NCBI GenBank assembly: GCA_049974095.1
Contig: JBMFJD010000012.1
Span: 2,723-17,999 of the forward strand
Source: Nanopusillaceae archaeon
GTDB taxonomy: Archaea; Nanobdellota; Nanobdellia; Nanobdellales; Nanobdellaceae
Direction: 5' to 3'
Length of the DNA: 15,277 nt
This document shows positions 1,002-15,131 of this stretch, in pieces. The translations under genes and the position numbers were made by a program. The stretch's first letter is position 1, and every line of letters begins with the position of its first letter. The notes beneath the pieces are model-generated. The model made no database searches. It was given only the letters and a program-made list of their open reading frames with translations, and was not told the origin of the DNA.

Positions 1002-4000
1002 GTATTTTCTACGTGCGTAATACCAACCTACCAATACTATACCAACACCTGCTGCTACAAAGATTCCATATATAGATAATGGTGTAGTAGATGATGAAGT
1101 AGTACTATATGCTGTTGGTACAGATACTGATGGTGTTGATGTTGTAGGAGCTGGAGTAGGAGCTGTAGTTGTTGGGGTAGGGGAAGGAGTGGGTGAAGGT
1201 GATGGAGAAGATGATTGAGTTGGTATGGTATATTGTAATGGTGCTGTTGGTGTAGTTAATAACATACTTACTGGTGTTGGAGTTAAGTTTAATGCAGATA
1301 ATACATAGATATCTGTTTCTGTAGTTGATGTATTACTATTGTATAGTGTACAATCTATTAAGTATCCTTCTGGAAAACACTCTTGTATTATGTCTACATC
1401 TAATGACATATATTGATAATATGGCCACAATTGTATGTATGAATATTGTCCTGACGCTGGGGATATTTCTAATTCGTCCTGTGCTCCATATACTACAGAT
1501 GCATAATTTATAAATGAAAAATTCTCAATAGTTAACATCGAATATATACTATTATTACTTGGGTTTGCGAACGCTACCGGAATATAACCTGTCTCTCCTA
1601 ATCCTATATATGATGGTGAACTTATATTAGATCCAAATGTATCCAACATTGATGATTGATTTATTAGATTTAATATTATGTTATCCCCTTGTACTGTGTA
1701 ATTATATATATTCATGTTAATACATGTATATTGCATATTGTTATAATTTAGCATTGCATTATATCCTATAACATATTCTCCATTTACTAAAATATTACTT
1801 TCAGGTACTATTGTAGATAAGTTTCCAACAATTAATATTGATACTTGTTTTCCTGCTATATCTGCAACAGTCATACTTACAACATCGTCATAATACTCTA
1901 TATTGCTTACAGTCATAAAGCTAGCAATTTCAGTACCATTTATTAAAGTAAAGATTTGTCCAGTAGCTTTATTTATTGCAAATATAAATAGATATTGGTT
2001 TCCATTTGTTGATTGACCTGTATCAAATATTATATATACATAATCTTTTGTTTCTACAACATATATTGGAAAATTAATATCAACATACATTGGATTATAT
2101 GGTTGTGAATAACCACTATTTATAGATATTACTGGTATATTACCTTGTGTTATATTAAGTATTGTCTCTACTTCGCCAGTTGATGTATTCATAAAGTCTC
2201 CAGCATATATAGTATAGTTATCTACTTCCACATAATAATTACTATAGTAAGGTACATTAGGATTATATATACTAGAGACTAATTGAGGAGAGGAAATGTT
2301 ATTACCTGTTACTGTTATTTCATACAATAAATAGTTATTTGTAGTTGAGAATGGCAATGATATATAAGCAGTATCATTATATTCATAGGCAAATATATTA
2401 CCAAAAATAGGATATGCTTCATCTAAGGTATATCCTTGATTTGTTAAGTTTTGTACTAAACTAGATATATTCTCTGATGCTACTAGTCCTCCAGTTATGT
2501 TAAATAAACTTACTAATTGTGGATATTCTGTACCAATAACTGCTAGCATATATGGACTATTATTGTAAGTATATGGATATACATAGAATACGTTTACTCC
2601 AGATAGAGATGATTGATCGAATGTTACATTAAATATATGTAATAGATATGCTGTAAAGTTGGTATAATTGAATTGTTGTGGATAACATGTTGGTACTTGA
2701 GCAGGAACTGTATAATATATTTGAGTTGGAGTTGGAGTTAATGGTTGTCCAGATACTACATATATCGTTGTATTTCCATTACCAGTACATGTTATTAAAT
2801 AATTATCTGCTACACAATAAGCATCAAATGCCATATAACCTACAGAATCATTTACAATATTAAAGTCAAATAGATGAAAACTTGGACCTCCAGAAAATGC
2901 TATTGGCCCAAATAAGAAAATATCTGATCCATTATAATAGATTGGAGTAACTGGGTGTATATTTCCAGGAAGTAGCTCGGCAGAATTAAAGTTTGGTACT
3001 ATAAATAAATTAGAATTATTATACACATATGGAGAACAATAGAATGTATCATTAGTTATATTAAAGGTAAAAACAGAAATAGATAAATTTTGATAAACAG
3101 AGAGCTGTCCATAATAATTATCATATATCCAACCAGGATACTCACCAAAGGTACTACAATAAGTTGCAGATAAATTATATAAAGTGGTATTTACAATAAT
3201 GTCATCCCAATCGGGAGTGTTTACAGCAATTGCATAATCATTTGGATAATATGTTGATAAATATGCTGGATATCCATATAAACTATTCGTATTATTGTAA
3301 AATATATAGAGTTGACCATTATTAAGATTTATATCAGCAAGAGAGAATATGCCACCACTATATGATCCATAATCTATATAAATATTATTTGCTGTTGGAG
3401 AAACCGTATAAAGACCATAGATGGGAACAGATAAATTCAATAATAAAGTACCATTTGGGGAATATATTCCTAAACTTGAGATTATATATTGATTATTTTC
3501 TGGAGTATTTATGAAATATATATTTGATAGGTCTCCACTTATGGTAGCATTAGATACTAATTGAGGTGAAGAAATATTATTACCATTTACAGTTATTTGA
3601 TATAAATATAAGCTAGTATATGAACCTGTATAGAATGACTCTGAATATTGGTAGAATGGTATATCTATATATGCTGTATTATTATATTCATAGATGAATA
3701 TATTACCAGAAGCTCTACCACCAGTTGCTGTAAAACTACCAGTAGTATAACCTAGATTAATTAAGTATTGTACTAAACTAGAAATATCCTCTGATGCTAC
3801 TAATCCTCCGGTAATATTAAATAAATCGACAGAGAGTGGATAATTAGAACCCAATACAGTCAAAATATAAGGAGTACCGTTATAAGTATATTGACTTACA
3901 GCAAAAACATTTGTACCATTATAAGTAAATGTATTAAAAGTAAAATTTAGTACTGGTATAACATATACCGACATGTTCGTCACGGTTAATTCATTTTGTG

Positions 4001-4067
4001 AGAACACCGGTATTCCTAGTATACCTAAACCTAAAAGAGACAATATAAGTATCTTTCTTTTATCCAT
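993..4067 (-). CDS. Large membrane-anchored surface glycoprotein, 1024 aa: signal peptide, two homologous ~439-aa modules, Ser/Thr/Pro stalk, C-terminal TM anchor
   Basis: The N-terminus MDKRKILILSLLGLGILGIPVFSQ is a Sec-type signal. I hand-counted about 20 N-X-S/T sequons in the first ~445 residues. The stalk SSSPSPSPTPSPTPTTTAPTPAPTTSTPS maps to nt ~1080-1217. The C-terminal hydrophobic helix IYGIFVAAGVGIVLVGWYY plus the basic tail ARRKYLG maps to nt ~993-1073. Confidence 0.9.
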   Translation of the reverse strand: MDKRKILILSLLGLGILGIPVFSQNELTVTNMSVYVIPVLNFTFNTFTYNGTNVFAVSQYTYNGTPYILTVLGSNYPLSVDLFNITGGLVASEDISSLVQYLINLGYTTGSFTATGGRASGNIFIYEYNNTAYIDIPFYQYSESFYTGSYTSLYLYQITVNGNNISSPQLVSNATISGDLSNIYFINTPENNQYIISSLGIYSPNGTLLLNLSVPIYGLYTVSPTANNIYIDYGSYSGGIFSLADINLNNGQLYIFYNNTNSLYGYPAYLSTYYPNDYAIAVNTPDWDDIIVNTTLYNLSATYCSTFGEYPGWIYDNYYGQLSVYQNLSISVFTFNITNDTFYCSPYVYNNSNLFIVPNFNSAELLPGNIHPVTPIYYNGSDIFLFGPIAFSGGPSFHLFDFNIVNDSVGYMAFDAYCVADNYLITCTGNGNTTIYVVSGQPLTPTPTQIYYTVPAQVPTCYPQQFNYTNFTAYLLHIFNVTFDQSSLSGVNVFYVYPYTYNNSPYMLAVIGTEYPQLVSLFNITGGLVASENISSLVQNLTNQGYTLDEAYPIFGNIFAYEYNDTAYISLPFSTTNNYLLYEITVTGNNISSPQLVSSIYNPNVPYYSNYYVEVDNYTIYAGDFMNTSTGEVETILNITQGNIPVISINSGYSQPYNPMYVDINFPIYVVETKDYVYIIFDTGQSTNGNQYLFIFAINKATGQIFTLINGTEIASFMTVSNIEYYDDVVSMTVADIAGKQVSILIVGNLSTIVPESNILVNGEYVIGYNAMLNYNNMQYTCINMNIYNYTVQGDNIILNLINQSSMLDTFGSNISSPSYIGLGETGYIPVAFANPSNNSIYSMLTIENFSFINYASVVYGAQDELEISPASGQYSYIQLWPYYQYMSLDVDIIQECFPEGYLIDCTLYNSNTSTTETDIYVLSALNLTPTPVSMLLTTPTAPLQYTIPTQSSSPSPSPTPSPTPTTTAPTPAPTTSTPSVSVPTAYSTTSSSTTPLSIYGIFVAAGVGIVLVGWYYARRKYLG
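1263..3995 (-). repeat. Internal two-fold duplication of the large glycoprotein (period ~1317 nt / 439 aa), diverged
   Basis: LFNITGGLVASEDISSLVQ (from aa 82) matches LFNITGGLVASENISSLVQ (from aa 521). YEYNNTAYIDIPF matches YEYNDTAYISLPF, and ITVNGNNISSPQLVS matches ITVTGNNISSPQLVS. Both modules end with a Cys-containing segment followed by LTPTPT or LTPTPV. The DNA also matches at 3775-3810 versus 2455-2490. Confidence 0.75.
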
Positions 4068-4149: not shown

Positions 4150-4542
4150 TTAGGGATTTTCTATCGATAACTTCTTGAGCATCTCATCTATGAATTTCCC
4201 TTGCATCAATGTATCACGATCTTTTAACTCACCAATCATCTCACCAATAGAAAACTTATATACTAAATTACCATTTTCTCTTGTAAGGTATACTTCTGTA
4301 CCATATAAATTAGGGTCATTAGAGGAATAATATAATCTAAGTTTTTCATTAAATGGTACTGTAACTACCATATCTGAAGATAAAACATTATCTACTACAT
4401 CAAATGTAAATTTTGCTTGTACGTTGTTTGGCAATCTTATCTTAATTATACACCATTCAAGATCTTGATACCAATCCTTACCTATTACCTCATATCTTTT
4501 AGCCACATTATTTGCTATTTGGTAGCATGTTTCCTTATCCAT
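4150..4542 (-). CDS. Hypothetical cytoplasmic protein, 130 aa
   Basis: ATG ORF with no signal peptide. It sits directly upstream of the large glycoprotein gene on the same strand. It has N- and C-terminal helices around a beta-rich core and weakly resembles the 124-aa and 145-aa proteins. Confidence 0.65.
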   Translation of the reverse strand: MDKETCYQIANNVAKRYEVIGKDWYQDLEWCIIKIRLPNNVQAKFTFDVVDNVLSSDMVVTVPFNEKLRLYYSSNDPNLYGTEVYLTRENGNLVYKFSIGEMIGELKDRDTLMQGKFIDEMLKKLSIENP

Positions 4543-4596: not shown

Positions 4597-5013
4597 TTAT
4601 TCCTCCATCCCATCCGATATCATATATCTAATATACTCACTAATATGGATTACTGAACCATTAAACCTTATAGCAAAGTATGTAGATTTTGGAGGAAATA
4701 TTTTATAATTACCGACAACTTCTAATAAAGATTCTTTGCTCATAACTTCCTTTGTCCTATAATTTAATACTAATAATTCTGGATCAAAGAAATCAAATAT
4801 TACAACCGGTACTTTTTTAATCCTTAATAATCTAGCCGCCTTCCATCTATGATGTCCATCTAATATTACAAATTTATCAAAGATATAAGATACCGCTAAT
4901 GGTAATTTTATTCCATTTACCTTTATATCGTATGCGAGTTGGATAACTTTACTTATATCGACCTGCTCATGCGGTACTAATCTATCTGTGTCAATAAAAG
5001 AAACACCGTTCAT
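4597..5013 (-). CDS. Stand-alone ParB/sulfiredoxin-like (ParB N-terminal nuclease-like) domain protein, 138 aa
   Basis: The segment IDTDRLVPHEQVDISKVIQLAYDIKVNGIKLPLAVSYIFDKFVILDGHHRWKAARLLRIKKVPVVI fits the ParB/Srx domain pattern: I-x-x-L-x-P ..., then a hydrophobic strand, DGxHR, an A-A helix and VP-V-I. No HTH or dimerisation domain and no adjacent ParA. Confidence 0.75.
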   Translation of the reverse strand: MNGVSFIDTDRLVPHEQVDISKVIQLAYDIKVNGIKLPLAVSYIFDKFVILDGHHRWKAARLLRIKKVPVVIFDFFDPELLVLNYRTKEVMSKESLLEVVGNYKIFPPKSTYFAIRFNGSVIHISEYIRYMISDGMEE

Positions 5014-5290: not shown

Positions 5291-5596
5291 ATGGATGAAG
5301 AATTGAAGAAATATTTAGATGAAATTAATTCTAAACTTGACAGGATTTTGGAATTATTAACATTAAAACCCGCTAGTGATATAGAAGAAGAAAGTGAAAA
5401 TAAAAATGTAGAAGCTGAGGTTGAAGAATTTGAGAATGAATTATTAAATGAAATTAAAGAAAAAGGATGGCAATTTGTATATAAAAGTTATTTAGTGAAA
5501 AGATTACAAGAAAAAGGATTATCATTTGATGATTTTATAAAATATAGTAGATTATTCTACGAAAAAGAAAAAGATAAATTTTATCCAGTAGAATGA
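5291..5596 (+). CDS. Hypothetical protein, 101 aa from ATG (track uses TTG at 5273): N-terminal coiled-coil helix, acidic linker, C-terminal small helical (possibly winged-helix) domain
   Basis: The domains read MDEELKKYLDEINSKLDRILELL, then the EEESENKNVEAEVEEFENE acidic tract, then KGWQFVYKSYLVKRLQEKGLSFDDFIKY. The stop overlaps the next start (ATGA at 5593-5596). Confidence 0.65.
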   Translation: MDEELKKYLDEINSKLDRILELLTLKPASDIEEESENKNVEAEVEEFENELLNEIKEKGWQFVYKSYLVKRLQEKGLSFDDFIKYSRLFYEKEKDKFYPVE

Positions 5597-5892
5597 ATAG
5601 ATATAAAATAGGTTATAGATATGAAAGGAAGGTTATTGAAGAATTAAGAGAAAAAGGATATTTTACAGTAAGGACTCCTGCATCTCACACACCTATAGAT
5701 ATTATAGCAATAAATGATAAGGGAGAAGTATTATTGATACAGGTTAAGAAGAGAAAAGATAATAATATACCAAAGGATGTTATTGAAGAATTAGAAGAAT
5801 TTGCTAAATTCTTTAAAGATGCTAATAATGTAAAGATATTATTATATTTCTTTGGAAAAGATGGAAAAAAAGTTATAGAAATAAAAAACTAG
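5593..5892 (+). CDS. hjc: Short Holliday junction resolvase (Hjc-family, PD-(D/E)xK fold) homologue, 99 aa, with Gln at the catalytic Glu position
   Basis: IGYRYERKVIEELREKGYFTVRTPASHTPIDIIAINDKGEVLLIQVKKRKD aligns by eye with the Hjc core pattern G-x3-ER-x6-LR-x-KG-x3-R-x-PAS...P-DIIA...L-I-E-x-K-x-RK. That gives E11, D36, Q50 (CAG at 5740-5742) and K52. Confidence 0.8.
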   Translation: MNRYKIGYRYERKVIEELREKGYFTVRTPASHTPIDIIAINDKGEVLLIQVKKRKDNNIPKDVIEELEEFAKFFKDANNVKILLYFFGKDGKKVIEIKN

Positions 5893-6326
5893 GAATAAGA
5901 CAATCTTTGTAATAATGTTATTATATTATTAACTGCCGATGAATTTATATTATCTTCATCTATTCTTATAAATGCCTGTACATACTGATTCTGACCATTT
6001 AATGGGGGATAATACCTTAATGATATTTCATCAATATCTACTAATCTAGGATTTCTAACAGATATAAATTCATTACCTGTAACATTACCAGATATTTCTT
6101 GAGTTATGTATATTCCTGATCTTACACTTGGATATGTTGTTTCATATATAAATCTAAATTCTCCATTTATTACTCTATTCTTATTAGAATTTCTATAAGT
6201 AACTTTTACTGTACATGCTTTGAGGTACTCAAAGTTATACTCTACAGTATATCCAAACCTATTTAATGATGTCCTGAAGTCATCCGCTAGTTTTCTACAG
6301 TCTTCTACATTATCTATTACGGTCAT
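5889..6326 (-). CDS. Hypothetical cytoplasmic protein, 145 aa, translationally coupled to the last gene of the glycoprotein array
   Basis: Its start overlaps the family-A stop as TAATG at 6324-6328. No signal peptide. The 3' end overlaps the convergent Hjc-like gene at CTAG (5889-5892). Confidence 0.7.
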   Translation of the reverse strand: MTVIDNVEDCRKLADDFRTSLNRFGYTVEYNFEYLKACTVKVTYRNSNKNRVINGEFRFIYETTYPSVRSGIYITQEISGNVTGNEFISVRNPRLVDIDEISLRYYPPLNGQNQYVQAFIRIDEDNINSSAVNNIITLLQRLSYS

Positions 6327-7405
6327 TATGAGTTTGCAGGAGTATATTCGAGGTATATAGCATTTAAAGCAGCACCAAAGTAGCTAATTGCAAAACCAGA
6401 TACAGTTATAGAGGATATTTCATTATATTGATTTGGGTCTGCTCCATTATTTATTAATACTTGTCTTAGATCATAAAATCCTGGAGTAAGGTATATATTA
6501 CAATCACTAAAATATGCCGACAATGTACTAACAATACATACATTAACACTACTATTAGTAGAGGGGTTTGTTATGCTATAAACAACATACATAAACGAAA
6601 AAGTAGCATATGGCGCAGACATAGGATTAGCACCAATTATTACGGGATATGATGGGTTATAGTATACATTTAAAGTTCTAATCATAGCTCCATTAGGTGC
6701 TATACCATTACCTGCCCATATAGTTCTAGTAGAATCATATGGAGCAGCAGTAAATACGCCACCATTCCCACACCAACCACCGTCCAAGGTTGTATTTGTA
6801 CCACAGTAAGGTTGATATGGTCCTTGTATAGAGTTACCAGCAAAAAGAAATGGAGATGGATAATATATATATAAATAATATGTTCCATTACTGAATATTC
6901 CACAACTTCCAGTTCCAGAACCTATAACAATTTCAAATGTTTGAGGTAAACCAGTAACATTATCATAGGATAATACATTCGATCGATATTGATATTCGGT
7001 CCAATATGAATATACGCCAGGATCTGTATTTGGACAAAGATTAATTAGTTGACCATTAGAGTTTGTTATTGCTACTACAGCGGGCCATGCAAATTCACAT
7101 TCTGAAGCATTTATTGAGGTAACATAAGGATCATAAGTCTTACAATATTGAAGTTGTTGTTGTAATACTTGTTCGGGAACTGTAAATTTAATAATTTGTA
7201 AATTTGCAGATGTAAATGCTTTAGATATATTAAAAACCCCAACTAATTGTGTAGTAAAAGTTGGGATACAAACACTATTCATACAAAAATATTGCCACAT
7301 AGGTTGAGGTGATTGAGAATATATTTTGTAAGGTAATATTAATAATAATAATAAAGGGAGTATGTATAATATCTTTCTCATAATATTATATTTGTTATAT
7401 ATCAT
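6326..7405 (-). CDS. Secreted putative glycoprotein, family A, copy A1 (359 aa; 351 aa if started at the second ATG, 7381)
   Basis: Signal peptide MRKILYILPLLLLLILPYKIYSQ. Family-A motifs are FTVPEQVLQQQLQYCKTYDPY, YDNVTGLPQTFEI, YIYYPSPF, DGGWCG and GADPNQYNEI. Many N-X-S/T sequons and no C-terminal anchor. Confidence 0.9.
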   Translation of the reverse strand: MIYNKYNIMRKILYILPLLLLLILPYKIYSQSPQPMWQYFCMNSVCIPTFTTQLVGVFNISKAFTSANLQIIKFTVPEQVLQQQLQYCKTYDPYVTSINASECEFAWPAVVAITNSNGQLINLCPNTDPGVYSYWTEYQYRSNVLSYDNVTGLPQTFEIVIGSGTGSCGIFSNGTYYLYIYYPSPFLFAGNSIQGPYQPYCGTNTTLDGGWCGNGGVFTAAPYDSTRTIWAGNGIAPNGAMIRTLNVYYNPSYPVIIGANPMSAPYATFSFMYVVYSITNPSTNSSVNVCIVSTLSAYFSDCNIYLTPGFYDLRQVLINNGADPNQYNEISSITVSGFAISYFGAALNAIYLEYTPANS

Positions 7406-7412
7406 TATAAAA
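7379..7412 (-). promoter_or_regulatory. Conserved 5' module, copy 1 of 6 (TATA box TTTATAA + 24-nt spacer + second ATG) for A1
   Basis: The sense strand reads TTTTATAATGATATATAACAAATATAATATTATG. The TATA box is centred about 27 nt upstream of the ATG at 7379-7381. Confidence 0.45.
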
Positions 7413-8906
7413 CTAAGCTATATAGAAACCTAATTGACCTCCATATAGATTTACCTGTAGTCCCAATGGAGTTTGTTGATACATTACAGAACCATTAGTA
7501 TAGATATTCAACAATGAATAATATCCTGACTCTTGAAGATTTACGAAATAGTTGAATACAGAGGATGGTTGACTAAAATCACTGTATGTATTATTAGTTA
7601 CAAATAAATATAGTATAGTAGGTACCATTGAAGTTACTTGTGGGATATTAACAAATATTAGTGCTGAACCATAATTTTGATAATACTGATTATCAAAAAA
7701 GTATGGTAATAATTGATAAGTATTTAATCCGGGGTTATATTCCATGATAATAAAGTTATTTGAAGATATATTTATTCCATAGGCTTGTTGTAAATATTGA
7801 TTATCTATTAATATTGGAAATACTGCATTAGAGACAGTATTATGTGGAAAGATATAAATGGGGATAGCGTATAAGAATCTAACGGATCTAGTATATGATG
7901 TTAATGTGGGGGTACCAATAGAGTAAGAATATGCACCTATAGGAGGAGTTACTCCATATACGTATACAAAGTTCTGATTAGGATTCCAAGTAAATATTGC
8001 TATTGCGGTTTTGTATTGAGGATAACTATCAACTATTTGAATATCATAAGTGGATTGAGTAGGTTGGAATTGTAGATTAATAAAGTTTCTACTTCCATAA
8101 TCTACTCCATTAACTGTAATATCATTTGGAACATAATTAGGTATATTTGGAATTGTATTATTTGGACCAATTAGGTATGGATATATTAATAATTGTATTG
8201 GGATGGAACCTATAGCTACAGCTACTGCATTTACTGTTTTAGTATTACTAGTGGTTGTTACTGTATAGTTGGTTATTTGAACGTTAACATCACTTTGATA
8301 TATTTCTGGAGAAGTAAAATTTAATATACCAATGCTAAAATTGGTATCTTGGGTTATTTGATCACTATAGGATAAAGCATTTAGAGATATAGTATAAGAG
8401 AAATTAAGATATGGGGAAGATTGATCATTTTGAGTAGCAATATATATTGTATTTAAACCTGGAAAGAGATTTGGTAGAGCATTATTAAAGAAACATACAG
8501 ATGACGTACAAGAATATGTAATATTATTAACATTATTTGTATCTACCCATATATCAGTAGGACCTGATCCATAAACAGTTAATAATATTTGACCTCCATT
8601 TTGTAATAAAAATTGATATAAAGTAGGATCAATAGATATATTAGATTCTACAATAAATAATGTATCATTGGGATAATATTGCCATTCATTACCTGTATAT
8701 GATACATTAAAGGGTTGAAATGTTACATTTGGATTAGGAACAGAAACACTATTTAAGGTTCCTACTGTTGCATTATACATAGAAGTTATGTTAATATAAT
8801 ATACATCTGCTGTTTGAGGAAATATTCTATAGGATAGTACTATTAGAGGTAATAATGATAATAGGTATAATATCCTTCTCATATTATTATATTTGTTATA
8901 TATCAT
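7413..8906 (-). CDS. Secreted putative glycoprotein, family B, copy B1 (497 aa)
   Basis: Signal peptide MRRILYLLSLLPLIVLSYRIFPQ. The N-terminal domain runs YYINITSMYNATVG...NEWQYYPNDTLFIVE...GLNTIYIATQN. The C-terminal half EIYQSDVNVQITNYTV...NLYGGQLGFYIA is highly conserved. I hand-counted only about 5 Lys/Arg in the mature protein. Confidence 0.9.
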   Translation of the reverse strand: MIYNKYNNMRRILYLLSLLPLIVLSYRIFPQTADVYYINITSMYNATVGTLNSVSVPNPNVTFQPFNVSYTGNEWQYYPNDTLFIVESNISIDPTLYQFLLQNGGQILLTVYGSGPTDIWVDTNNVNNITYSCTSSVCFFNNALPNLFPGLNTIYIATQNDQSSPYLNFSYTISLNALSYSDQITQDTNFSIGILNFTSPEIYQSDVNVQITNYTVTTTSNTKTVNAVAVAIGSIPIQLLIYPYLIGPNNTIPNIPNYVPNDITVNGVDYGSRNFINLQFQPTQSTYDIQIVDSYPQYKTAIAIFTWNPNQNFVYVYGVTPPIGAYSYSIGTPTLTSYTRSVRFLYAIPIYIFPHNTVSNAVFPILIDNQYLQQAYGINISSNNFIIMEYNPGLNTYQLLPYFFDNQYYQNYGSALIFVNIPQVTSMVPTILYLFVTNNTYSDFSQPSSVFNYFVNLQESGYYSLLNIYTNGSVMYQQTPLGLQVNLYGGQLGFYIA

Positions 8907-8913
8907 TATAAAA
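8880..8913 (-). promoter_or_regulatory. Conserved 5' module, copy 2 of 6, for B1
   Basis: Same TTTTATAATGATATATAACAAATATAATAATATG-type sequence as the other copies; second ATG at 8880-8882. Confidence 0.45.
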
Positions 8914-8939
8914 TATTAGTTTATGAAATATGATTAATA

Positions 8940-9962
8940 CTAGGTTTCAGGTATATACTGGAGAATCATACCATAAACAGACATCTCTGAAGCACCACTA
9001 ACACTTGAATTTGGAAATATTTTTATATTAACAATTTCATTCCATTGATTAGGATCTAGACCATTTTGAAGTTCTAATGATCTAAGATCATATATAGCAT
9101 TAGAATATGGTATATATATTGTTCGATTTTGGTCGGTATATGGATTTTTTATGGTTATATATCCATATACAGAAGGAGATAGCGAACCTATGAGTACTGG
9201 ATAAAATGGATTAAATCTTACATATAAATATCTGGTTATATTCACATTACCCATTAAACCACCAAAATAATAAAGTATCTGAGAATATGGGTATCTATAA
9301 TGACTGCTTATATAATCTATATAAGATGACCCAAATCCACCCGTATCTGAACACCAACCACCATCGAAATCCGAAGATGTTATATTTGATAGATTAGAGG
9401 GACATTGTATAAGGTACGTAAGGTTTGACATAGATTCAAAAGAATAATAAAATGGAGATGGGTAGTATACATATATATAATATGTACCTGGACTCAGAGA
9501 ACCTATATCTATCTCAAATGTTTGAGGTAAACCTGTAGTATTATCATAAGAAATAGGTATTGTATAATAAGGTATTTGATACTGAACTAAAGAGAGACTA
9601 GAATCATATAAAGCAACTAACGCAGGGTAAGCAAAATCACATTGGGATAAATTTATTGATGTAATATATGGATCATAGGTTTTACAATAATATAGTTGTT
9701 GTTGTAATACTTGTTTGGGAACTGTAAAAGTAATAGATATTAAATTATTTGATTTGGTTATATTAAGTTGATATACTAACTGAGTAGTATATAGAGGAAG
9801 ATTAGTCCCCCAAAGAGATCTATTTTCAACGACTACCCCAACAGGACCTGCCTCAGGCCAAATAGGTGATTGAGAATATACTTTGTAAGGTAATATTACT
9901 AATAACAATAGTGGTAGTATATAAAATATCTTTCTCATAATATTATATTTGTTATTCATCAT
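8940..9962 (-). CDS. Secreted putative glycoprotein, family A, copy A2 (340 aa)
   Basis: Signal peptide MRKIFYILPLLLLVILPYKVYSQ. Motifs are FTVPKQVLQQQLYYCKTYDPYITSINLSQC, YDNTTGLPQTFEI, YVYYPSPF, DGGWC and LELQNGLDPNQWNEIVNI. Confidence 0.9.
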   Translation of the reverse strand: MMNNKYNIMRKIFYILPLLLLVILPYKVYSQSPIWPEAGPVGVVVENRSLWGTNLPLYTTQLVYQLNITKSNNLISITFTVPKQVLQQQLYYCKTYDPYITSINLSQCDFAYPALVALYDSSLSLVQYQIPYYTIPISYDNTTGLPQTFEIDIGSLSPGTYYIYVYYPSPFYYSFESMSNLTYLIQCPSNLSNITSSDFDGGWCSDTGGFGSSYIDYISSHYRYPYSQILYYFGGLMGNVNITRYLYVRFNPFYPVLIGSLSPSVYGYITIKNPYTDQNRTIYIPYSNAIYDLRSLELQNGLDPNQWNEIVNIKIFPNSSVSGASEMSVYGMILQYIPET

Positions 9963-9969
9963 TATAAAA
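9936..9969 (-). promoter_or_regulatory. Conserved 5' module, copy 3 of 6, for A2
   Basis: The sense strand reads TTTTATAATGATGAATAACAAATATAATATTATG, identical to the B2 copy; second ATG at 9936-9938. Confidence 0.45.
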
Positions 9970-11985
9970 TTAGGATATATAGAAACCTAATTGGCCTCCA
10001 TATAAGTTAGCCTGTAATCCCAATGGTGTTTGTTGATACATTACTGAACCATTGGTGTAGATATTCAGTAATGAATAATATCCTGACTCTTGAAGATTTA
10101 CGAAATAGTTGAATACAGAGGATGGTTGACTAAAATCACTATATGTATTATTAGTTACAAATAAATATAGTATAGTAGGTACCATCGAGGTAACTTGTGG
10201 TACATTAACAAATATTAATGCGGATTCATAGTTTTGATAATATTGATTATCAAAGAAGTATGGAAGTAATTGATAAGTATTTAACCCTGGATTGTATTGC
10301 ATTATAATAAAGTTATTTGAAGATATATTAACACCGTAATTTTGTTGTAAGTATTGATTATCTATTAATAGTGGGAATACTGCATTAGAGACAGTATTAT
10401 GTGGGAATATGTATATTGGGATGGCGTATAAGAAACCTACTGATTTTGTATATGATGTTAACGTAGGAGTACCTATTGAATATGAGTATGTGCCAGGTAA
10501 GGGTGTAACACCAGGCGTTACACTATATACATATACAAAGTTTTGATTAGGATTCCAGGTAAATATTGCTATTGCGGTTTTGTATTGAGGATAACTATCA
10601 GTTATCTGGATATTATATGTTGATTGCGTGGGAACAAAATTTAGATTAATGAAATTAGCACTGCTATAGTATATTCCATTAATTATAATTTGATTTGGAA
10701 CATAATTAGTTATACTAGGAAATTCTCCATTAGGACCAATAAGAAATGCGTACAATAATAAAGGCACTGGTATAGAACCAGTAGCTACAGCTACGGCATT
10801 TACTGTTTTAGAAGTATTAGTAATTGTTACTGTATAGTTTGTTATTTGAACGTTAACATCACTTTGATATATTTCTGGAGGTGTAAGATTAACTATGTCA
10901 ATACTAAAGTTAATATCTTGATTTATAGATAAAGCAAGATTATGTAGATTATCAGAGATAGTATAACCAAAATTAAAAATTATAACTGGTAGTTGATTTT
11001 CAACAACAATATATATTGTATTTAAACCTGGAGAGAGGTTTAGTGGAACACTATAGTAATTATACATATTATAATAACTATAGGTGACATTACTTACATT
11101 ATTTGTATCTACCCATATATAGGTAGGACCTGATCCATAAACAGTTAATAATATTTGACCCCCATTTTGTAATAAAAATTGATATAGATTGGGATCTATA
11201 GTTATATTAGTTTCTACAATAAATAATGTATCATTGGGATAATATTGCCATTCATTACCTGTATATGATACATTAAAGGGTTGAAATGTTACATTTGGAG
11301 GTAAGGAAGTAATACTGGATAAGTCGCCTACTGTTGCATTATACATAGAGGTTATATTAATGTAGTATATACCTGGTGGCGGAGGATAGGACGTAAGGTT
11401 CGATAAATTAATACTAAGGTTTGTATCATTAAGTATTTGAACACTATAAGAGTAGATACTTATAGATATATTATAAAATAAGACAAAATATACGGAAGAT
11501 TGTTGATTTTGAGTAGCAATATATATTGTGTTTAAACCTGGAGCGAGATTTAGTGGAACATTATTAAAGGAACCTATAGGCATTGTAGATGAATATGTAA
11601 CATTACTTACATTATTTGTATCTACCCATATATAGGTAGGACCTGATCCATAAACAGTTAATAATATTTGACCCCCATTTTGTAATAAAAATTGATATAG
11701 ATTGGGATCTATAGTTATATTAGTTTCTACAATAAATAATGTATCATTGGGATAATATTGCCATTCATTACCTGTATATGATACATTAAAGGGTTGAAAT
11801 GTTACATTAGGAGGTAAGGATGTAATACTGGATAAGCTACCATTTGTTACATTATACATAGAGGTTATATTAATGTAGTATATACCTTCAGTTTGTGGGT
11901 ATATCCTATACGATAGTACTACTAGAAATAATATAGGTAATAGGTATAATATCTTTCTCATAATATTATATTTGTTATTCATCAT
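9970..11985 (-). CDS. Secreted putative glycoprotein, family B, copy B2 (671 aa), with its N-terminal domain tandemly duplicated
   Basis: Same signal peptide and C-terminal half as B1 and B3. The GIYYINITSMYN... domain occurs at aa 34 and again at aa 205. Confidence 0.9.
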   Translation of the reverse strand: MMNNKYNIMRKILYLLPILFLVVLSYRIYPQTEGIYYINITSMYNVTNGSLSSITSLPPNVTFQPFNVSYTGNEWQYYPNDTLFIVETNITIDPNLYQFLLQNGGQILLTVYGSGPTYIWVDTNNVSNVTYSSTMPIGSFNNVPLNLAPGLNTIYIATQNQQSSVYFVLFYNISISIYSYSVQILNDTNLSINLSNLTSYPPPPGIYYINITSMYNATVGDLSSITSLPPNVTFQPFNVSYTGNEWQYYPNDTLFIVETNITIDPNLYQFLLQNGGQILLTVYGSGPTYIWVDTNNVSNVTYSYYNMYNYYSVPLNLSPGLNTIYIVVENQLPVIIFNFGYTISDNLHNLALSINQDINFSIDIVNLTPPEIYQSDVNVQITNYTVTITNTSKTVNAVAVATGSIPVPLLLYAFLIGPNGEFPSITNYVPNQIIINGIYYSSANFINLNFVPTQSTYNIQITDSYPQYKTAIAIFTWNPNQNFVYVYSVTPGVTPLPGTYSYSIGTPTLTSYTKSVGFLYAIPIYIFPHNTVSNAVFPLLIDNQYLQQNYGVNISSNNFIIMQYNPGLNTYQLLPYFFDNQYYQNYESALIFVNVPQVTSMVPTILYLFVTNNTYSDFSQPSSVFNYFVNLQESGYYSLLNIYTNGSVMYQQTPLGLQANLYGGQLGFYIS
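10861..11886 (-). repeat. In-frame tandem duplication, 2 x 513 bp (171 aa), inside B2
   Basis: A long, near-identical DNA block occurs twice, from about 11101 to 11296 and from about 11614 to 11809. ATTTGTATCT begins at 11101 and again at 11614, an offset of 513. Protein aa 55-132 and aa 226-303 are identical. Confidence 0.9.
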
Positions 11986-11992
11986 TATAAAA
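11959..11992 (-). promoter_or_regulatory. Conserved 5' module, copy 4 of 6, for B2
   Basis: Same sequence as the A2 copy; second ATG at 11959-11961. Confidence 0.45.
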
Positions 11993-13483
11993 TTAGGATA
12001 TATAGAATCCTAATTGGCCTCCATATAAGTTAGCCTGTAATCCAAGTGGAGTTTGTTGATACATTACTGATCCATTGGTATAGATATTCAGTAATGAGTA
12101 ATATCCCGATTCTTGTAAGTTTACGAAATAGTTGAATACAGAGGATGGTTGACTAAAATCACTATATGTACTATTAGTTACAAATAAATACAATATTGTT
12201 GGGACCATTGATGTAACTTGAGGAATATTAACAAATATTAATGCAGGTCCGTAGTTTTGATAATATTGATTATCAAAGAAGTATGGAAGTAATTGATAAT
12301 TATTTAACCCTGGATTGTATTGCATTATTATGAAATTGTTTGAAGATATATTAACACCGTAATTTTGTTGTAAGTATTGATTATCTATTAATAGTGGGAA
12401 TACTGCATTAGAGACAGTATTATGTGGAAATATATAAATGGGTATTGCATATAAGAATCTAACGGATCTAGTATAAGATGTTAATGTTGGGGTACCTATC
12501 GAATAAGAATATGAACCTACTAGTGGCGTTATACCATAGACATATACAAAGTTTTGATTAGGATTCCAAGTAAATATTGCTATTGCTGTTTTATATTGAG
12601 TATAGTTATCTGTTATCTGAATATCGTAAATAGATTGGTTTGGTACAAAATCCAGATTAATAAAACTTACACTTCCGTAATTTACTCCATTAACTATAAT
12701 ATCACTTGGAACATAATTAGTTATATTAGCAATAGTACCATTTGGATCAATTAGGTATGGATATAGTAATAATTGTATTGGGATAGAACCAGTAGCTACA
12801 GCTACCGCATTTACTATTTTAGTATTATTAGTAATTGTTACTGTATAGTTGGTTATTTGGACATTAACATCACTTTGATATATTTCTGGAGAAGTAAGAT
12901 TTAGTATACCAAAACTAATGTTTGTATCTTGAGTTATCTGAGCACTATATGAGAAACCATTTAGAGATATAGTATAAGAGAAATTAAGATATGAAAATGA
13001 TTGTTGATTTTGAGTAGCAATATATATTGTATTTAAACCTGGAGAGAGATTCAGTGGAATAGTAGTAGAACATGAAGACGAATTACAAGAATATGTAACA
13101 TTATTGATATTATTTGTATTAGCCCATACATAAGTAGGACCTGATGGAGAAACATCTAGATATGTTATACCACCACTCTTTGTAAAAAGTTGATATATGG
13201 TAGGATCAATAGTTATATTAGACTCTACAATAAATAATGTATCATTTGGATAATATTGCCATTCATTACTATCATATGAGACATTAAAGGGTTGGAATAC
13301 TACATTGGGAGGTAAGGAAGTAATGTTAGATAAATTACCTACTGTTGCATTATACATAGAGGTTATGTTGATATAATATACACCTGCTGTTTGTGAGTAT
13401 ACTCTATAAGAGAGTACTAATAATAATAATAGTGGAAGTATGTACAATATCTTTCTCATAATATTATATTTGTTATATATCAT
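11993..13483 (-). CDS. Secreted putative glycoprotein, family B, copy B3 (496 aa)
   Basis: Signal peptide MRKILYILPLLLLLVLSYRVYSQ. Collinear with B1 over its full length, and its C-terminal ~150 aa are nearly identical to those of B2. Confidence 0.9.
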   Translation of the reverse strand: MIYNKYNIMRKILYILPLLLLLVLSYRVYSQTAGVYYINITSMYNATVGNLSNITSLPPNVVFQPFNVSYDSNEWQYYPNDTLFIVESNITIDPTIYQLFTKSGGITYLDVSPSGPTYVWANTNNINNVTYSCNSSSCSTTIPLNLSPGLNTIYIATQNQQSFSYLNFSYTISLNGFSYSAQITQDTNISFGILNLTSPEIYQSDVNVQITNYTVTITNNTKIVNAVAVATGSIPIQLLLYPYLIDPNGTIANITNYVPSDIIVNGVNYGSVSFINLDFVPNQSIYDIQITDNYTQYKTAIAIFTWNPNQNFVYVYGITPLVGSYSYSIGTPTLTSYTRSVRFLYAIPIYIFPHNTVSNAVFPLLIDNQYLQQNYGVNISSNNFIIMQYNPGLNNYQLLPYFFDNQYYQNYGPALIFVNIPQVTSMVPTILYLFVTNSTYSDFSQPSSVFNYFVNLQESGYYSLLNIYTNGSVMYQQTPLGLQANLYGGQLGFYIS

Positions 13484-13490
13484 TATAAAA
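13457..13490 (-). promoter_or_regulatory. Conserved 5' module, copy 5 of 6, for B3
   Basis: Same module; second ATG at 13457-13459. Further upstream, 13491-13509 matches 8914-8932 (the region upstream of B1). Confidence 0.45.
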
Positions 13491-13543
13491 TATTGGTTTA
13501 TGAAATATATAGAATATTATGTAGTATTACTTATGCAATATAT

Positions 13544-14602
13544 CTATGTTTGAGGAACATAAATTAAAGAAAAACCATATATATGTACCACACTAGTATG
13601 AATCGAGCCACTTATACTTATATTAACAATTTCATTCCATTGATTAGGATCTAAACCATTTTGAAGTTCTAATAATCTAAGATCGTATAAAGGTCCACCG
13701 GAGAATGTTATAGTTTTGGTTTGACCTGTAGATGGATTCATTACAGTAACTGAACCTTGATCGTATCCAGAACTATCTAAAGCATAAAAAAGATAAAATA
13801 ATAGGTATCCGATCATAACAGGGTACGATGGATTAAATTTCACATAAAGATATCTAGTCAATATAAAGTTACCATCATATCCTCCACTTAGAGATACGCC
13901 CCATGGATAATAATACTCAAAAAAGTAATATGATGTATACATACCTCCACACCAGCCACCATTGAAATCATAAGAAGATACATTTGTAAGGTTAAAGGGA
14001 CATGATGAAATATTAGAACTAGTTAACGAATATATAGAATAGAAGGATGGACCTGGATAATATACATATAAATAAAAAGAATTATTTAGGTTGTAAAATA
14101 AAGGAGATTCATAATTTGTACCGAGAAAGATCGCAAATGTATTAGGTAGTCCCGTTGTGTTGTCATAATCAATAGGGATTATTTGTCCTTTTGAATAAAC
14201 AATATTATATGCATTTGGATTATTATATATATCTATAGCCGGTGAGCTATATAAAACAGCAATTATTGGATATGCGAAAACACATTGAGATAGGTTTATT
14301 GATGTAATATATGGATCATAGGTTTTACAATAGTATAGTTGTTGTTGTAATACTTGTTCAGGAACTGTAAAGGTAATAATTTGAATATTTGAAGAATTAA
14401 AACCATCAGGTAGATTGAATGCATAAACTAACTGACTCAAATATAAGGGAATACTTGCAGATCCACTAATATAGCCACTTTTAGAAAATGTAGGCCAAAC
14501 AGGTTGTAGAGAATATACATTGTATATGAACGATACTTCTGGTAATAGGAAGAGTAATAAATAGAGAATTCTCCTCATAATATTATATTTGTTATATATC
14601 AT
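13544..14602 (-). CDS. Secreted putative glycoprotein, family A, copy A3 (352 aa), first gene of the array
   Basis: Signal peptide MRRILYLLLFLLPEVSFIYNVYS. Motifs are FTVPEQVLQQQLYYCKTYDPYITSINLSQC, YDNTTGLPNTFAI, YVYYPGPS, NGGWCG and LELQNGLDPNQWNEIVNI. Confidence 0.9.
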   Translation of the reverse strand: MIYNKYNIMRRILYLLLFLLPEVSFIYNVYSLQPVWPTFSKSGYISGSASIPLYLSQLVYAFNLPDGFNSSNIQIITFTVPEQVLQQQLYYCKTYDPYITSINLSQCVFAYPIIAVLYSSPAIDIYNNPNAYNIVYSKGQIIPIDYDNTTGLPNTFAIFLGTNYESPLFYNLNNSFYLYVYYPGPSFYSIYSLTSSNISSCPFNLTNVSSYDFNGGWCGGMYTSYYFFEYYYPWGVSLSGGYDGNFILTRYLYVKFNPSYPVMIGYLLFYLFYALDSSGYDQGSVTVMNPSTGQTKTITFSGGPLYDLRLLELQNGLDPNQWNEIVNISISGSIHTSVVHIYGFSLIYVPQT

Positions 14603-14609
14603 TATAAAT
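14576..14609 (-). promoter_or_regulatory. Conserved 5' module, copy 6 of 6, for A3
   Basis: The sense strand reads TTTATAATGATATATAACAAATATAATATTATG; second ATG at 14576-14578. Confidence 0.45.
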
Positions 14610-14897
14610 ACTTATAATAAAAATGTATTATGGAATACCGGTGCAAGGTTCAAAGATATAAATATAGATATTTTTCATATAGGAAAGGTTATAGTAGTTA
14701 GATTTGAGAATATAAAATATATACCAGCATATAACTTTTTCGAAAAGTATAAGGATAAGGTAGATGCATTTATCACAGTATCTTCAGGGAGAATGAGTGG
14801 TTATTTAGTTATAAAAGCTGCATAAGCGATATCAAAAGAAACTGATAAAAAAGTTATAGCAATTGTAGCAGATAATTATGAAAAATATAGAAAATAG
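14589..14897 (+). pseudogene. Possible gene remnant: reading frame with no ATG start, interrupted by an in-frame TAA
   Basis: The track ORF starts at TTG inside the A3 promoter module and has no in-frame ATG near its 5' end. After the TAA at 14823-14825 the same frame continues as AISKETDKKVIAIVADNYEKYRK to the TAG at 14895-14897. Confidence 0.25.
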
Positions 14898-14909
14898 AAA
14901 AAAGAAGGT

Positions 14910-15131
14910 CTAGTGAGAGAAAGCTGCTCTTAATCCTTCAGCCCATCTATTAGCTAATTCTGGTGCCATTGAACTCATTACAATTGAATAGTTCTTTGCT
15001 GGTGTTGAATTACAAGCTGCATCTCCTACACCTAAGAAAGCTCCTACATCTCTACAATATTTTTGTGCTGTTTCTGGTCTGGATACTCCCTGTTGGTATT
15101 TTGTCTTTGCGTAATCTAATGTTTTGACCAT
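14910..15131 (-). CDS. Small Ala/Gly-rich hypothetical protein, 73 aa, compositionally distinct from its neighbours
   Basis: ATG ORF with TTTATAAAA about 24 nt upstream (minus strand, about 15151-15159). It is visibly more GC-rich than the surrounding genes. Family not recognised. Confidence 0.65.
   Translation of the reverse strand: MVKTLDYAKTKYQQGVSRPETAQKYCRDVGAFLGVGDAACNSTPAKNYSIVMSSMAPELANRWAEGLRAAFSH

Follow-up and report, generated by a model that had tools for sequence, protein, structure and literature searches.

The window analysed here, a 15,277-nucleotide stretch of a Nanopusillaceae (Nanoarchaeota/DPANN) metagenome-assembled genome (MAG), harbours an array of six secreted-protein genes belonging to two families, A and B. 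With a probability of roughly 0.55, we regard this array as a hypervariable, recombining island encoding two lineage-restricted, Sec-exported, N-glycosylated all-beta families, whose products are probably located on the cell surface or where the cell meets its host. The original interpretation of the locus is partly supported.

All six genes are intact and lie head-to-tail on the minus strand in the order A-B-B-A-B-A, followed by a gene C. Counted from the second of two successive ATG codons, they are A1 (13544–14578, 344 aa from MRR), B1 (11993–13459, 488 aa from MRK), B2 (9970–11961, 663 aa from MRK, with a duplicated N-terminal domain), A2 (8940–9938, 332 aa from MRK), B3 (7413–8882, 489 aa from MRR) and A3 (6326–7381, 351 aa from MRK), which contains 10 Cys and has diverged most among the family-A copies. 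When the first ATG is used instead, the open reading frames cover 352 aa (A1, to 14602), 496 aa (B1, 11993–13483), 671 aa (B2, 9970–11985), 340 aa (A2, 8940–9962), 497 aa (B3, 7413–8906) and 359 aa (A3, 6326–7405), with spacers of 60, 7, 7, 33 and 7 nt. The gene order, the protein lengths (~340–360 aa for A, ~500–670 aa for B) and the 7–60-nt spacers of the original prediction agree with the ORF list. At the ~28% GC of the window we estimate that about 8% of random codons would be stops, so that open reading frames of 340–670 codons are not expected by chance; moreover, every A and B copy has kept the invariant residues of its own family. The array is confirmed as real. A1 and B1 are 100% identical to NCBI hypothetical proteins of a Nanopusillaceae MAG (MGC9133539.1/ACP5GJ_04025 and MGC9133538.1/ACP5GJ_04020, respectively), which bears out the assignment of the locus to an archaeon.

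Each A and B gene is preceded by a common 35-nt module (repeat family D8) in which a TATA-like box precedes the second ATG (MRKILY...) by 30 nt, e.g. TTTATAAT at positions −30 to −23 of the MRR start of A1. The modules occupy positions 14579–14613 (A1), 13460–13494 (B1), 11962–11996 (B2), 9939–9973 (A2), 8883–8917 (B3) and 7382–7416 (A3) of the minus strand; those of B2, A2 and A3 overlap the stop codons of B1, B2 and B3, respectively. Together with the signal-peptide region the stretch common to each gene amounts to about 100 nt. The same module was found at four related loci (L001, L003, L005 and L007), and in L003 and L005 the first ATG is replaced. Changes within the eight upstream 'codons' are nearly all non-synonymous, and two further upstream module types, one in front of MCM-adjacent A genes and one in front of divergent B genes, again have a TATA-like box at −30 to −23. 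Judged from these sequence features, the true start is probably located eight codons downstream of the first ATG, and MIYNKYNI would be promoter DNA and not coding; the NCBI annotation likewise begins these proteins at MRK (488 and 344 aa). The earlier reading from the first ATG had overlooked the module and taken part of it as coding. Probably each of the six genes has a separate promoter. As TATA-like strings are common at 28% GC, these putative promoters are called from position and conservation alone.

Apart from the 5′ module and the signal peptide, A and B have no sequence in common. Nucleotide identity between the families is 88% at −35 to −1 and 65% in the signal peptide, but 26% in the mature part, where 30% would be expected by chance. 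An hhalign comparison of the A and B profiles paired only the first 31 columns, i.e. the leader and signal peptide, in line with the predicted unrelatedness of the mature proteins. As the original prediction had it, neither family was recognised: A and B gave no match in Pfam above threshold, NCBIfam, PHROGs or PDB sequences, and no relatives were detected in 185,579 species genomes, in IMG/VR (2.9 million contigs) or in 50,697 phage records. An exhaustive search of 1.84 billion representatives with an A profile HMM retrieved eight proteins, each at E<1e-48, and nothing more distantly related. For B, single-sequence and profile queries agreed on seven clusters among 5.8 billion proteins. By these searches, both families are lineage-restricted near-orphans.

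The features predicted for export hold for both families. A hydropathy scan gave a single N-terminal hydrophobic segment per protein (KD19 1.7–1.9) and no C-terminal transmembrane segment in any of them, which agrees with a Sec-type signal and a missing membrane anchor; nor was an anchor, lipobox or sorting signal found in the A or B proteins. An internal stretch of B, NAVAVATGSIP..LLLY, reaches just above the hydropathy threshold; because this falls within the middle domain, a better-predicted beta-sandwich, it was not taken as an anchor. The proteins are indeed poor in basic residues (K+R 1.0–4.4%) and rich in Asn (7–12%) and Tyr (10–12.5%), and the low Lys/Arg content would suit life in acid. 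The very high sequon density that had been claimed is valid for B and only in part for A. Compared with composition-preserving shuffles, sequons reach about twice the expectation in B (B1, 22 versus 10.4±2.7; B2, 30 versus 14.1±3.2; B3, 15 versus 9.6±2.7) and are enriched in A2 (10 versus 3.9±1.7), marginal in A1 (8 versus 4.4±1.9) and not enriched in A3 (6 versus 4.8±2.0). From sequence we infer that A and B are N-glycosylated.

Structure models of A and B are all-beta and weakly suggest a resemblance to carbohydrate-binding jelly rolls. The model of A2 (332 aa from MRK; pLDDT 78.3, pTM 0.77) comprises two beta-sandwich domains, and the best Foldseek matches of the A model are APC10/DOC1, CBM4, CBM29, a mannanase CBM and neuropilin b1b2. 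For the B model (mean pLDDT 50, with a poor C-domain), matches to GH2 sugar-binding plus Ig domains and to a fungal lectin were obtained with the N-terminal and middle domains. These fold matches are weak, with query TM-scores of 0.2–0.28. The A proteins end in a conserved LxYxP[QE]T and the B proteins in a conserved LYGGQLGFYI[SA], both of which resemble beta-strands. The conserved C-terminal domain of all seven B members matches DUF2341 at model positions 14–71 of 84, always below threshold (best B2, 21.9 bits versus a Pfam gathering threshold of 23.4); in B1 the match covers residues 397–456.

The composition of the array differs between relatives, with turnover at a fixed site. As predicted, A3 is coupled to C, which encodes a 145-aa non-secreted protein (5889–6326, minus strand): the two genes share a single base, the final A of the A3 stop codon, with which the start codon of C begins (CTCATAATGACC; TAATG overlap). 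C has no hydrophobic segment and no family or PDB match; it is 74–76% identical in L001, L003 and L005 and always convergent with Hjc. Like the A-B-B-A-B-A-C array of the window, L001 (B-A-C), L005 ((A)-A-B-A-C) and L003 ((A)-A-C) all end at C. L007 holds B-A, L006, L008 and L009 have a divergent B without A, and L002 and L004 carry A-A-A adjoining MCM, without B. Comparison across related genomes bears out variation in array size, but the proposed recurrent A/B pairing does not hold as a rule: A-only (L002, L003, L004) and B-only (L006, L008, L009) loci exist.

Sequence divergence sets the island apart from its surroundings. Between the window and its closest relative, L001, flanking genes have dS 0.16–0.31 and dN 0.04–0.15, while A and B have dS ~1.0 and dN 0.22–0.50; the high dS of the island may come from a comparison of non-orthologous paralogues. 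All values are Nei-Gojobori estimates over short windows of AT-rich genes. Within B, omega is 0.02–0.10 in the C-domain and 0.5–1.3 in the N-domain, and a value near 1 fits relaxed selection equally well as positive selection. B2 contains an in-frame tandem duplication (10861–11886, minus strand) of two 513-nt (171-codon) N-domain copies, 11374–11886 and 10861–11373, which are 95% identical over 300 nt (repeat family D1). Their first 100 codons differ by dS 0.09 and dN 0.03, their last ~70 codons by dS 0.56 and dN 0.54. A copies are 40–57% identical to one another and to neighbours' copies, with A3 at 40–48% to A1 and A2. No known switching device (homopolymer tract, invertible element or reverse transcriptase) was found.

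A two-component structure, in which A and B would be subunits of an accessory coat or of a thread- or pilus-like filament assembled by strand exchange and kept in several variant copies, as first proposed for the locus, is an unlikely alternative. Both families share one island and one 5′ module, which suggests co-expression, and both combine a missing anchor with beta-strand-like C-termini. Heavily glycosylated beta-sandwich proteins are also known from archaeal threads, bundling pili and S-layers, which resemble A and B in being Sec-exported, N-glycosylated, acid-adapted, beta-rich and poor in basic residues. In the SlaA/SlaB S-layer pair of Sulfolobales, SlaA is itself unanchored and depends on a membrane-anchored partner to hold it; a membrane-anchored 1024-aa protein of similar composition lies 2 kb from the A/B array. 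Yet A and B fall far short of SlaA in size and have no sequence or profile similarity to any of these proteins, no TasA, pilin or S-layer family match and, by sequence inspection, no class III signal. No assembly genes adjoin the array. Stoichiometric pairing is not conserved, given the A-only (L002, L004) and B-only loci and variable A:B ratios, and divergent copies of variable number are not what one would expect of a lattice or filament subunit, which should be conserved.

We give little credence to the idea that a virus or plasmid, either integrated or once mobile, carries the island as cargo, with A and B as virion or envelope glycoproteins or as maskers of superinfection receptors. Genes of the sort that archaeal mobile elements typically carry abound in the neighbourhood (ParB-like nuclease and Hjc resolvase within the window; on related contigs, truncated MCM/AAA+ and MarR/HTH genes), L008 is a rearranged second copy of this neighbourhood in the same MAG, the island dS lies far above the flanks as if imported, and BFVD fold matches include, weakly, phage tail and host-specificity proteins. 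On the other hand, no relatives turned up in the 2.9 million IMG/VR contigs, the 50,697 phage records or PHROGs, the window contains neither an integrase, capsid or terminase nor a tRNA attachment site, and the same conserved flanking genes bracket the island in several genomes. An A array also adjoins a full-length 714-aa MCM resembling a replicative helicase, and Sec signal peptides fit export from a cell. Similarly improbable, in our view, are secreted scavengers that bind glycans or peptides, or degrade glycans, to harvest host-envelope material for the metabolically dependent symbiont, a role in which they would not be adhesins. The likeness of the models to CBM and GH2 sugar-binding jelly rolls and the missing anchor, which fits release from the cell, would suit such a role, as would a thermopsin protease gene close to the L002 A array; for Nanobdella, secreted proteins have been proposed to degrade the host envelope (bioRxiv 10.1101/2023.10.27.564410). 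But profiles from Pfam, NCBIfam and PDB revealed neither a catalytic domain nor a catalytic motif, the fold differs from the alpha/beta type of solute-binding proteins, ABC transporter genes do not adjoin the array, and enzymes seldom match A in evolutionary speed or copy-number variation.

The claim that such a system is undescribed stands for the two families but not for their kind, as similar host-interaction factors have already been proposed in two studies (PMC6142677; bioRxiv 10.1101/2023.10.27.564410). Nanoarchaeota surfaces carry glycosylation different from that of their hosts (PMC4935971). In Yellowstone Nanoarchaeota, hypothetical external proteins have the most non-synonymous SNPs, at high density, and these fast-evolving proteins were interpreted as factors of host interaction or defence evasion (Jarett et al. 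2018, PMC6142677). They resemble A and B in phylum and habitat type and in being uncharacterised, exported and faster than the rest of the genome; the category was, however, derived from SNP statistics and not from a gene family or locus, and the available text describes no array, common module or rates by domain. A part in host recognition has also been proposed for predicted lectin-like or Ig-fold extracellular glycoproteins of the cultivated DPANN archaea Nanobdella aerobiophila (MJ1_0179 and others) and Nanohalobium constans (LC1Nh_0399–0401 and 0423, several with consecutive locus numbers; bioRxiv 10.1101/2023.10.27.564410). Like A and B, these come from ectosymbiotic nano-sized archaea and have signal peptides, many sequons, predicted beta-sandwich or lectin-like folds and few or no sequence homologues. 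There is no detectable sequence relationship, matches in the A search and the two B searches being confined to a few Nanopusillaceae-type contigs, and several of those proteins are transmembrane-anchored and, in the available text, not described as two-family tandem arrays with one module, whereas A and B are unanchored. DUF2341 (PF10102) is reported from large archaeal putative pilus-tip adhesins linked to type IV pili (arCOG03508; Makarova et al. 2016, PMC4858521). Proteins with this domain are extracellular and have been proposed as adhesins, and B matches it in its conserved C-terminal domain; but B is sub-threshold, much smaller, equipped with Sec signals and outside a pilus locus.

The genetic layout has a functional analogy, not a homology, in bacteria. 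The Erp ('upstream homology box') lipoproteins of Borrelia and the Vlp lipoproteins of Mycoplasma hyorhinis are multigene families with a common 5′ promoter-plus-leader cassette. There, too, highly divergent or unrelated mature regions follow a near-identical promoter and signal peptide in host-dependent organisms with reduced genomes, and recombination makes strains differ in the number and content of the copies. Erp and Vlp, however, have a lipobox Cys, which A and B lack; neither the poly-A promoter tract that mediates Vlp phase switching nor a plasmid of the cp32 prophage type that carries erp genes was found here.

Taken as a recombining surface-protein island, the locus would belong to a tiny acidophilic hot-spring nanoarchaeon that lives attached to other archaea and in which a separate promoter would give each A/B gene a leaderless mRNA, all six genes being co-regulated. 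The repeated module and the conserved 3′ end of B would serve as substrates for homologous recombination, which would account for the duplication, loss and patching of whole genes and domains. Through its strongly conserved C-terminal domain, B is probably attached to a partner or to the cell envelope, with the fast-changing N-terminal jelly-roll domain probably facing outward. Most likely, A and B would act in the symbiont's outer coat or at its host-contact surface, e.g. by binding host-surface glycans, and their variation would be driven by pressure from host or virus. The change in copy number between close relatives is as expected for fast-evolving cell-surface or host-contact proteins.

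The window has a GC content of ~28% throughout, and seven head-to-tail open reading frames occupy its minus strand from position 14602 to 5889: A1 (352 aa), B1 (496 aa), B2 (671 aa), A2 (340 aa), B3 (497 aa), A3 (359 aa) and the non-secreted protein C (145 aa). Counted from the first ATG, the spacers measure 60, 7, 7, 33 and 7 nt, and A3 and C have one base in common at their junction (TAATG). Since we estimate that about one in 12 random codons would be a stop at this base composition, reading frames of such length are not chance products; family-invariant residues are retained in every A and B copy. The array of the original prediction, with its seven intact frames, 7–60 nt spacers and TAATG overlap, is real and has more structure than had been noticed, but the strand and the start codons given for it need correction.

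All six A and B genes (6/6) carry at their 5′ end a 75-nt direct repeat (family D8), the core of which is TTTATAATGATATATAACAAATATAATATT followed by ATGAG. This module holds a TATA-like box at −30 to −23 relative to the second in-frame ATG, the one that opens MRKILY.... Nucleotide identity between A and B genes amounts to 88% at −35 to −1 and 65% in the signal peptide, and falls to 26% in the mature region, where 30% is expected by chance. Several observations suggest that the eight 'codons' ahead of MRK are promoter and not coding sequence. The first ATG is replaced by TTG, along with other changes, in the related loci L003 and L005; differences among 16 module copies would be nearly all non-synonymous if these codons were translated; and the NCBI and JGI annotations start the genes at MRK. 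Moreover, two unrelated upstream cassettes, TTTAAATA in A genes next to an MCM helicase gene and TTTTATATA in divergent B genes, place a TATA-like box equally far from the MR.. ATG. In the standard archaeal promoter the TATA box is centred ~26–27 nt upstream of the transcription start. Because the spacing in the module agrees with this layout, we infer, with the caution due to the frequency of TATA-like strings in AT-rich DNA, that the six array genes would each have their own promoter, give leaderless mRNAs and be under common control.

Behind the shared module the two families go separate ways. They had been called unrelated, and an hhalign comparison of their profiles joins only the first 31 columns, i.e. 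leader and signal peptide, so that distant kinship was rejected at the sequence level. Four cysteines are invariant in family A, which also conserves the motifs TVPEQ(V/I)LQQQLxYCKTYDP, SYDNxTGLPxTF, GGWC, RYLxVxFNPxYPV and LYDLRxLExxxGLDPNQWNEI and, at its C-terminus, LxYxP[QE]T. Family B consists of a ~170-aa N-terminal domain, a middle domain and a C-terminal region of ~210 aa that is nearly identical between copies; in B2 the N-terminal domain is duplicated in frame (513 nt). By hydropathy, each protein has one N-terminal hydrophobic segment with the n-h-c layout of Sec signals and no C-terminal hydrophobic segment, as anticipated for proteins lacking a membrane anchor. One internal stretch of B slightly exceeds the hydropathy cut-off, but falls within the beta-sandwich portion that is predicted best in the model. 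Lysine plus arginine make up 1.0–4.4% of the array proteins and a similarly low share of a neighbouring 1024-aa protein; low basic content is typical of the extracellular proteins of acidophiles. When sequons were compared with composition-preserving shuffles, B and the 1024-aa protein reached about twice the expectation and A2 was clearly above it. The very high sequon density ascribed to the array thus holds for B and A2, whereas A1 is marginal and A3 is not raised.

The N-termini of the array proteins read MRK-ILYILPLLLLLIL-PYKIYSQ. Their c-region is polar and the basic residues are not followed by G/A/S, unlike in the class III signal peptides of type IV pilins and archaellins; no array protein has a pilin or archaellin match in Pfam. 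Pfam, NCBIfam and PDB profiles gave no similarity to S-layer families (SlaA/SlaB type), and hydropathy revealed no SlaB-type C-terminal transmembrane anchor in A or B. Neither family resembles TasA or archaeal thread subunits in Pfam or PDB profiles. ABC substrate-binding proteins are disfavoured by the predicted all-beta models, the lack of a match to such proteins and the lack of transporter genes in the window. As expected from the first inspection, neither family was recognised: scans of Pfam, PHROGs and NCBIfam returned nothing above threshold for A and B, nor for C, the 1024-aa protein and the small neighbours p130, p124 and p73 (named by length), and profiles of A, B, C and p130 found no meaningful match among PDB sequences. 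Below threshold, DUF2341 (PF10102) scored 15.8 bits with B1, 21.9 with B2 and 17.6 with B3 (gathering threshold 23.4). The same region of that model is matched by 7/7 B members (E 2.4e-4 to ~0.02), 0/7 of them at threshold, which is suggestive of remote homology and not of family membership. DUF2341 is known from large extracellular putative adhesins (PMC4858521, PMC11809585).

For A2, an 18-sequence alignment yielded a model with two predicted beta-sandwich domains (pLDDT 78.3, pTM 0.77). Foldseek against the PDB returned low-TM, high-probability matches to single galactose-binding or CBM-type jelly rolls, among them APC10/DOC1, a mannanase CBM, CBM4-2, CBM29 and neuropilin b1b2. Matches of A to double-jelly-roll capsid proteins (PR772 P3, IBDV VP2, SPV2) were dropped in view of their probabilities of 0.06–0.38 and the Sec signal. 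For B1 the model as a whole is of low quality (pLDDT 50.4); its N-terminal and middle domains (~65–85) appear to resemble the sugar-binding N-terminal and Ig-like domains of GH2 enzymes and a fungal lectin, and the C-domain fails.

B1 and A1 are 100% identical to the hypothetical proteins ACP5GJ_04020 and ACP5GJ_04025 of the NCBI MAG 'Nanopusillaceae archaeon'; the source thus belongs with the DPANN ectosymbionts, in the Nanoarchaeota/Nanobdellota. Both families are rare. Among 5.8 billion proteins, B forms 7 clusters, the same 7 by single-sequence query and by profile, and A forms 13; when 1.84 billion representatives were searched exhaustively with HMMER, the A profile matched 8 only, all with E<1e-48 and with no tail of distant relatives. 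No relatives of A or B were found in 185,579 species-representative genomes by degenerate-pattern and tblastn scans, in IMG/VR, or in phage records by tblastn. A JGI/ENA metagenome scan gave one short contig.

The border of the island on the right is fixed and consists of C, followed by the convergent Holliday-junction resolvase gene (hjc) and p107. The gene content varies: it is A-B-B-A-B-A-C in the window, B-A-C in the closest relative, L001, whose flanks share ~85% DNA identity with the window, (A)-A-B-A-C in L005, (A)-A-C in L003 and B-A in L007; comparison across relatives thus reveals the copy-number variation that had been proposed as a check. L006, L008 and L009 have a B variant (41–47% identical) directly followed by a p130-like gene, and no A. 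At a second site, immediately after an MCM helicase gene of full length and with their own conserved upstream cassette, lie three tandem A genes in L002 (7800–14004) and at least two in L004 (2361–6234), where the contig ends, in both cases without B. L002 also has a 285-aa MCM fragment after the tandem A genes, and a thermopsin gene close by. A and B are therefore co-localised, as the original prediction held, but the varying island content indicates that the pairing is not obligatory.

In L001 (12628–12743), L003 (1613–1728) and L005 (4500–4615) a mini-ORF of 27 codons, MKQISTLMFNILGYYKGLFYKYFIKNS, stands behind the array 5′ module, and its stop overlaps the start of C via AAACTCATAATGACC, a junction identical to the A3–C link of the window. 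It may be what is left of an A3-type gene since deleted, or it may encode a leader peptide. Directly adjoining A1 is a remnant of a gene for a PLP-dependent enzyme (PALP; 14607–14921, plus strand), which covers only residues 7–70 and 249–291 of the intact 294-aa L001 gene; with ~178 codons deleted, it is a pseudogene.

Further exported and small proteins accompany the island. The 1024-aa protein (993–4067, minus strand) is N/Y/S/T-rich and K/R-poor, has 41 sequons where 19 are expected, and bears, besides a Sec signal and a stalk rich in S/T/P, a transmembrane anchor at its C-terminus. It could be an anchored partner of a surface or S-layer-like kind. Its homologues in L001 and L008 are 53–67% identical (67% for the L008 copy). 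By eye, its N-terminal region is internally duplicated. A fused relative of A or B was rejected, as alignment with B is limited to the signal peptide. The small cytoplasmic proteins C (5889–6326, minus), p130 (4150–4542, minus) and p124 (173–547, plus), to which L006 2167–2583 and L008 11572–11988 are added, repeatedly adjoin exported-glycoprotein genes. In L006, L008 and L009 the p130-like gene and the divergent B overlap start-to-stop, as C and A3 do, and C and p130 have a two-Cys N-terminal pattern in common. A single family of C, p130 and p124 did not emerge from BLASTP (not significant) or hhalign (E=0.015, 3% probability, confined to the two-Cys N-terminal stretch). p73 (14910–15131, minus), without a family match, is 85% identical in L001, and L006 and L008 carry two or three divergent copies of it in tandem. 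L008, a 28.7-kb contig (ACP5GJ_03890) of the same NCBI MAG, holds the entire neighbourhood a second time in rearranged form, with three p73-like genes, the divergent B, p130-, p107-, p84-, p124- and Hjc-like genes and the copy of the 1024-aa protein; it reflects either segmental duplication in one genome or two related, co-binned populations. No RNA genes were found in the window.

Nei–Gojobori estimates between the window and L001 separate the island from its surroundings. Flanking Hjc, p107, p130 and p73 have dS 0.16–0.31 and dN 0.04–0.15; the corresponding values are ~1.0 and 0.22–0.25 for B, ~1.0–1.2 and 0.34–0.50 for A, 0.75 and 0.15 for C, and 0.8 and 0.34 for the 1024-aa protein. Since dS in the island is ~1.0 against 0.16–0.31 in the flanks, the island alleles would be much older, or exchanged, and the flanks young. 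A copies are 40–53% identical to each other, with a best identity elsewhere of 57% and no close orthologue. When the three B copies are compared, dS is 0.3–1.1 and omega 0.02–0.10 over the C-terminal ~210 codons, in keeping with strong constraint such as acts on a docking or assembly domain. In columns 61–180 of the N-domain, dS is lower, at 0.14–0.38, and omega 0.2–1.3, mostly 0.5–0.8; given the short windows and the simple method, omega near 1 is read as lack of constraint and not as proven positive selection. The two N-domain copies of B2 are near-identical over the first 100 codons (dS 0.09) and then diverge (dS 0.56, dN 0.54). This mosaic fits patchy gene conversion together with an exposed domain under relaxed or diversifying selection. 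A diversity-generating retroelement is not indicated: no reverse-transcriptase domain was found in the window proteins scanned, and the divergent repeat parts differ by ~40% with indels instead of by adenine-specific changes.

This evidence best supports reading the locus as an island that recombines, is hypervariable and encodes exported N-glycoproteins, which would belong to the outside of a nanoarchaeal ectosymbiont or to the apparatus by which it contacts its host. A two-component coat or filament of A and B, as first proposed, is less likely, since A:B pairing is not conserved between loci and A diverges very fast. A mobile-element origin of the island is suggested by its ParB, Hjc, MCM and MarR neighbours and its high dS. 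A ParB N-terminal-domain protein (4597–5013, minus), the Hjc-type resolvase (5593–5892, plus) and a zinc-ribbon protein (747–1001, plus) flank the island, truncated MCM and MarR/HTH genes occur on related contigs, and this gene set is frequent on archaeal mobile elements; against such an origin, no viral matches, integrase or element borders were found. A scavenging or enzymatic role of A and B is a rival for which no catalytic signature was found. The initial interpretation was right in part.

By analogy, the array resembles Borrelia Erp/UHB and Mycoplasma Vlp, in which mature proteins unrelated to each other likewise follow a single conserved cassette of promoter and leader: the cassette is present in six copies in the window and in variable numbers elsewhere, ahead of divergent mature regions. 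Erp and Vlp have a lipoprotein anchor, however, whereas A and B lack a lipobox Cys at the signal-peptide end. All six array copies (6/6) are intact and have the promoter module, and a switching device like that of Erp/UHB/Vlp was not found by a scan for direct repeats with units longer than three bases or by a scan for short tandem repeats, which detected no such repeats in or near the cassettes and no relevant phase-variation tracts. Variable multigene surface-protein arrays of host-dependent microbes are thus already known as a kind, so that the supposed novelty applies to the families A and B and not to the phenomenon. Work on related organisms backs the kind of system, not these particular genes. 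Nanopusillus has surface glycans unlike those of its host, and a part for glycosylation in the interaction of the two was put forward (PMC4935971). In Yellowstone Nanoarchaeota, non-synonymous SNPs are densest in hypothetical external proteins (PMC6142677), and a preprint proposes lectin-like/Ig-fold extracellular glycoproteins of Nanobdella aerobiophila and Nanohalobium constans for host recognition (bioRxiv 10.1101/2023.10.27.564410).

A more specific proposal, which we regard as unlikely, is that the shared module would be a dedicated recombination and expression cassette for swapping, duplicating and deleting genes and domains of two glycan-binding families, the set of copies fixing the host species or surface glycan. 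If this were true, bacterial and parasite loci for antigenic or host-range variation would have an archaeal counterpart in the island. Almost no candidates have been defined at the gene-family level for the molecules by which DPANN archaea such as Nanoarchaeota recognise and hold specific hosts. The locus offers two concrete near-orphan exported families whose common regulatory and export module can be recognised and which sit at a constant genomic address where copy number varies between close relatives; B, in addition, sets a conserved domain next to a fast-evolving one. These features make the host-recognition question testable. Even if A and B were ordinary coat components, the locus would still show family expansion beside gene decay (the PALP pseudogene) in a reduced genome, and it would matter more if island content tracked host identity.
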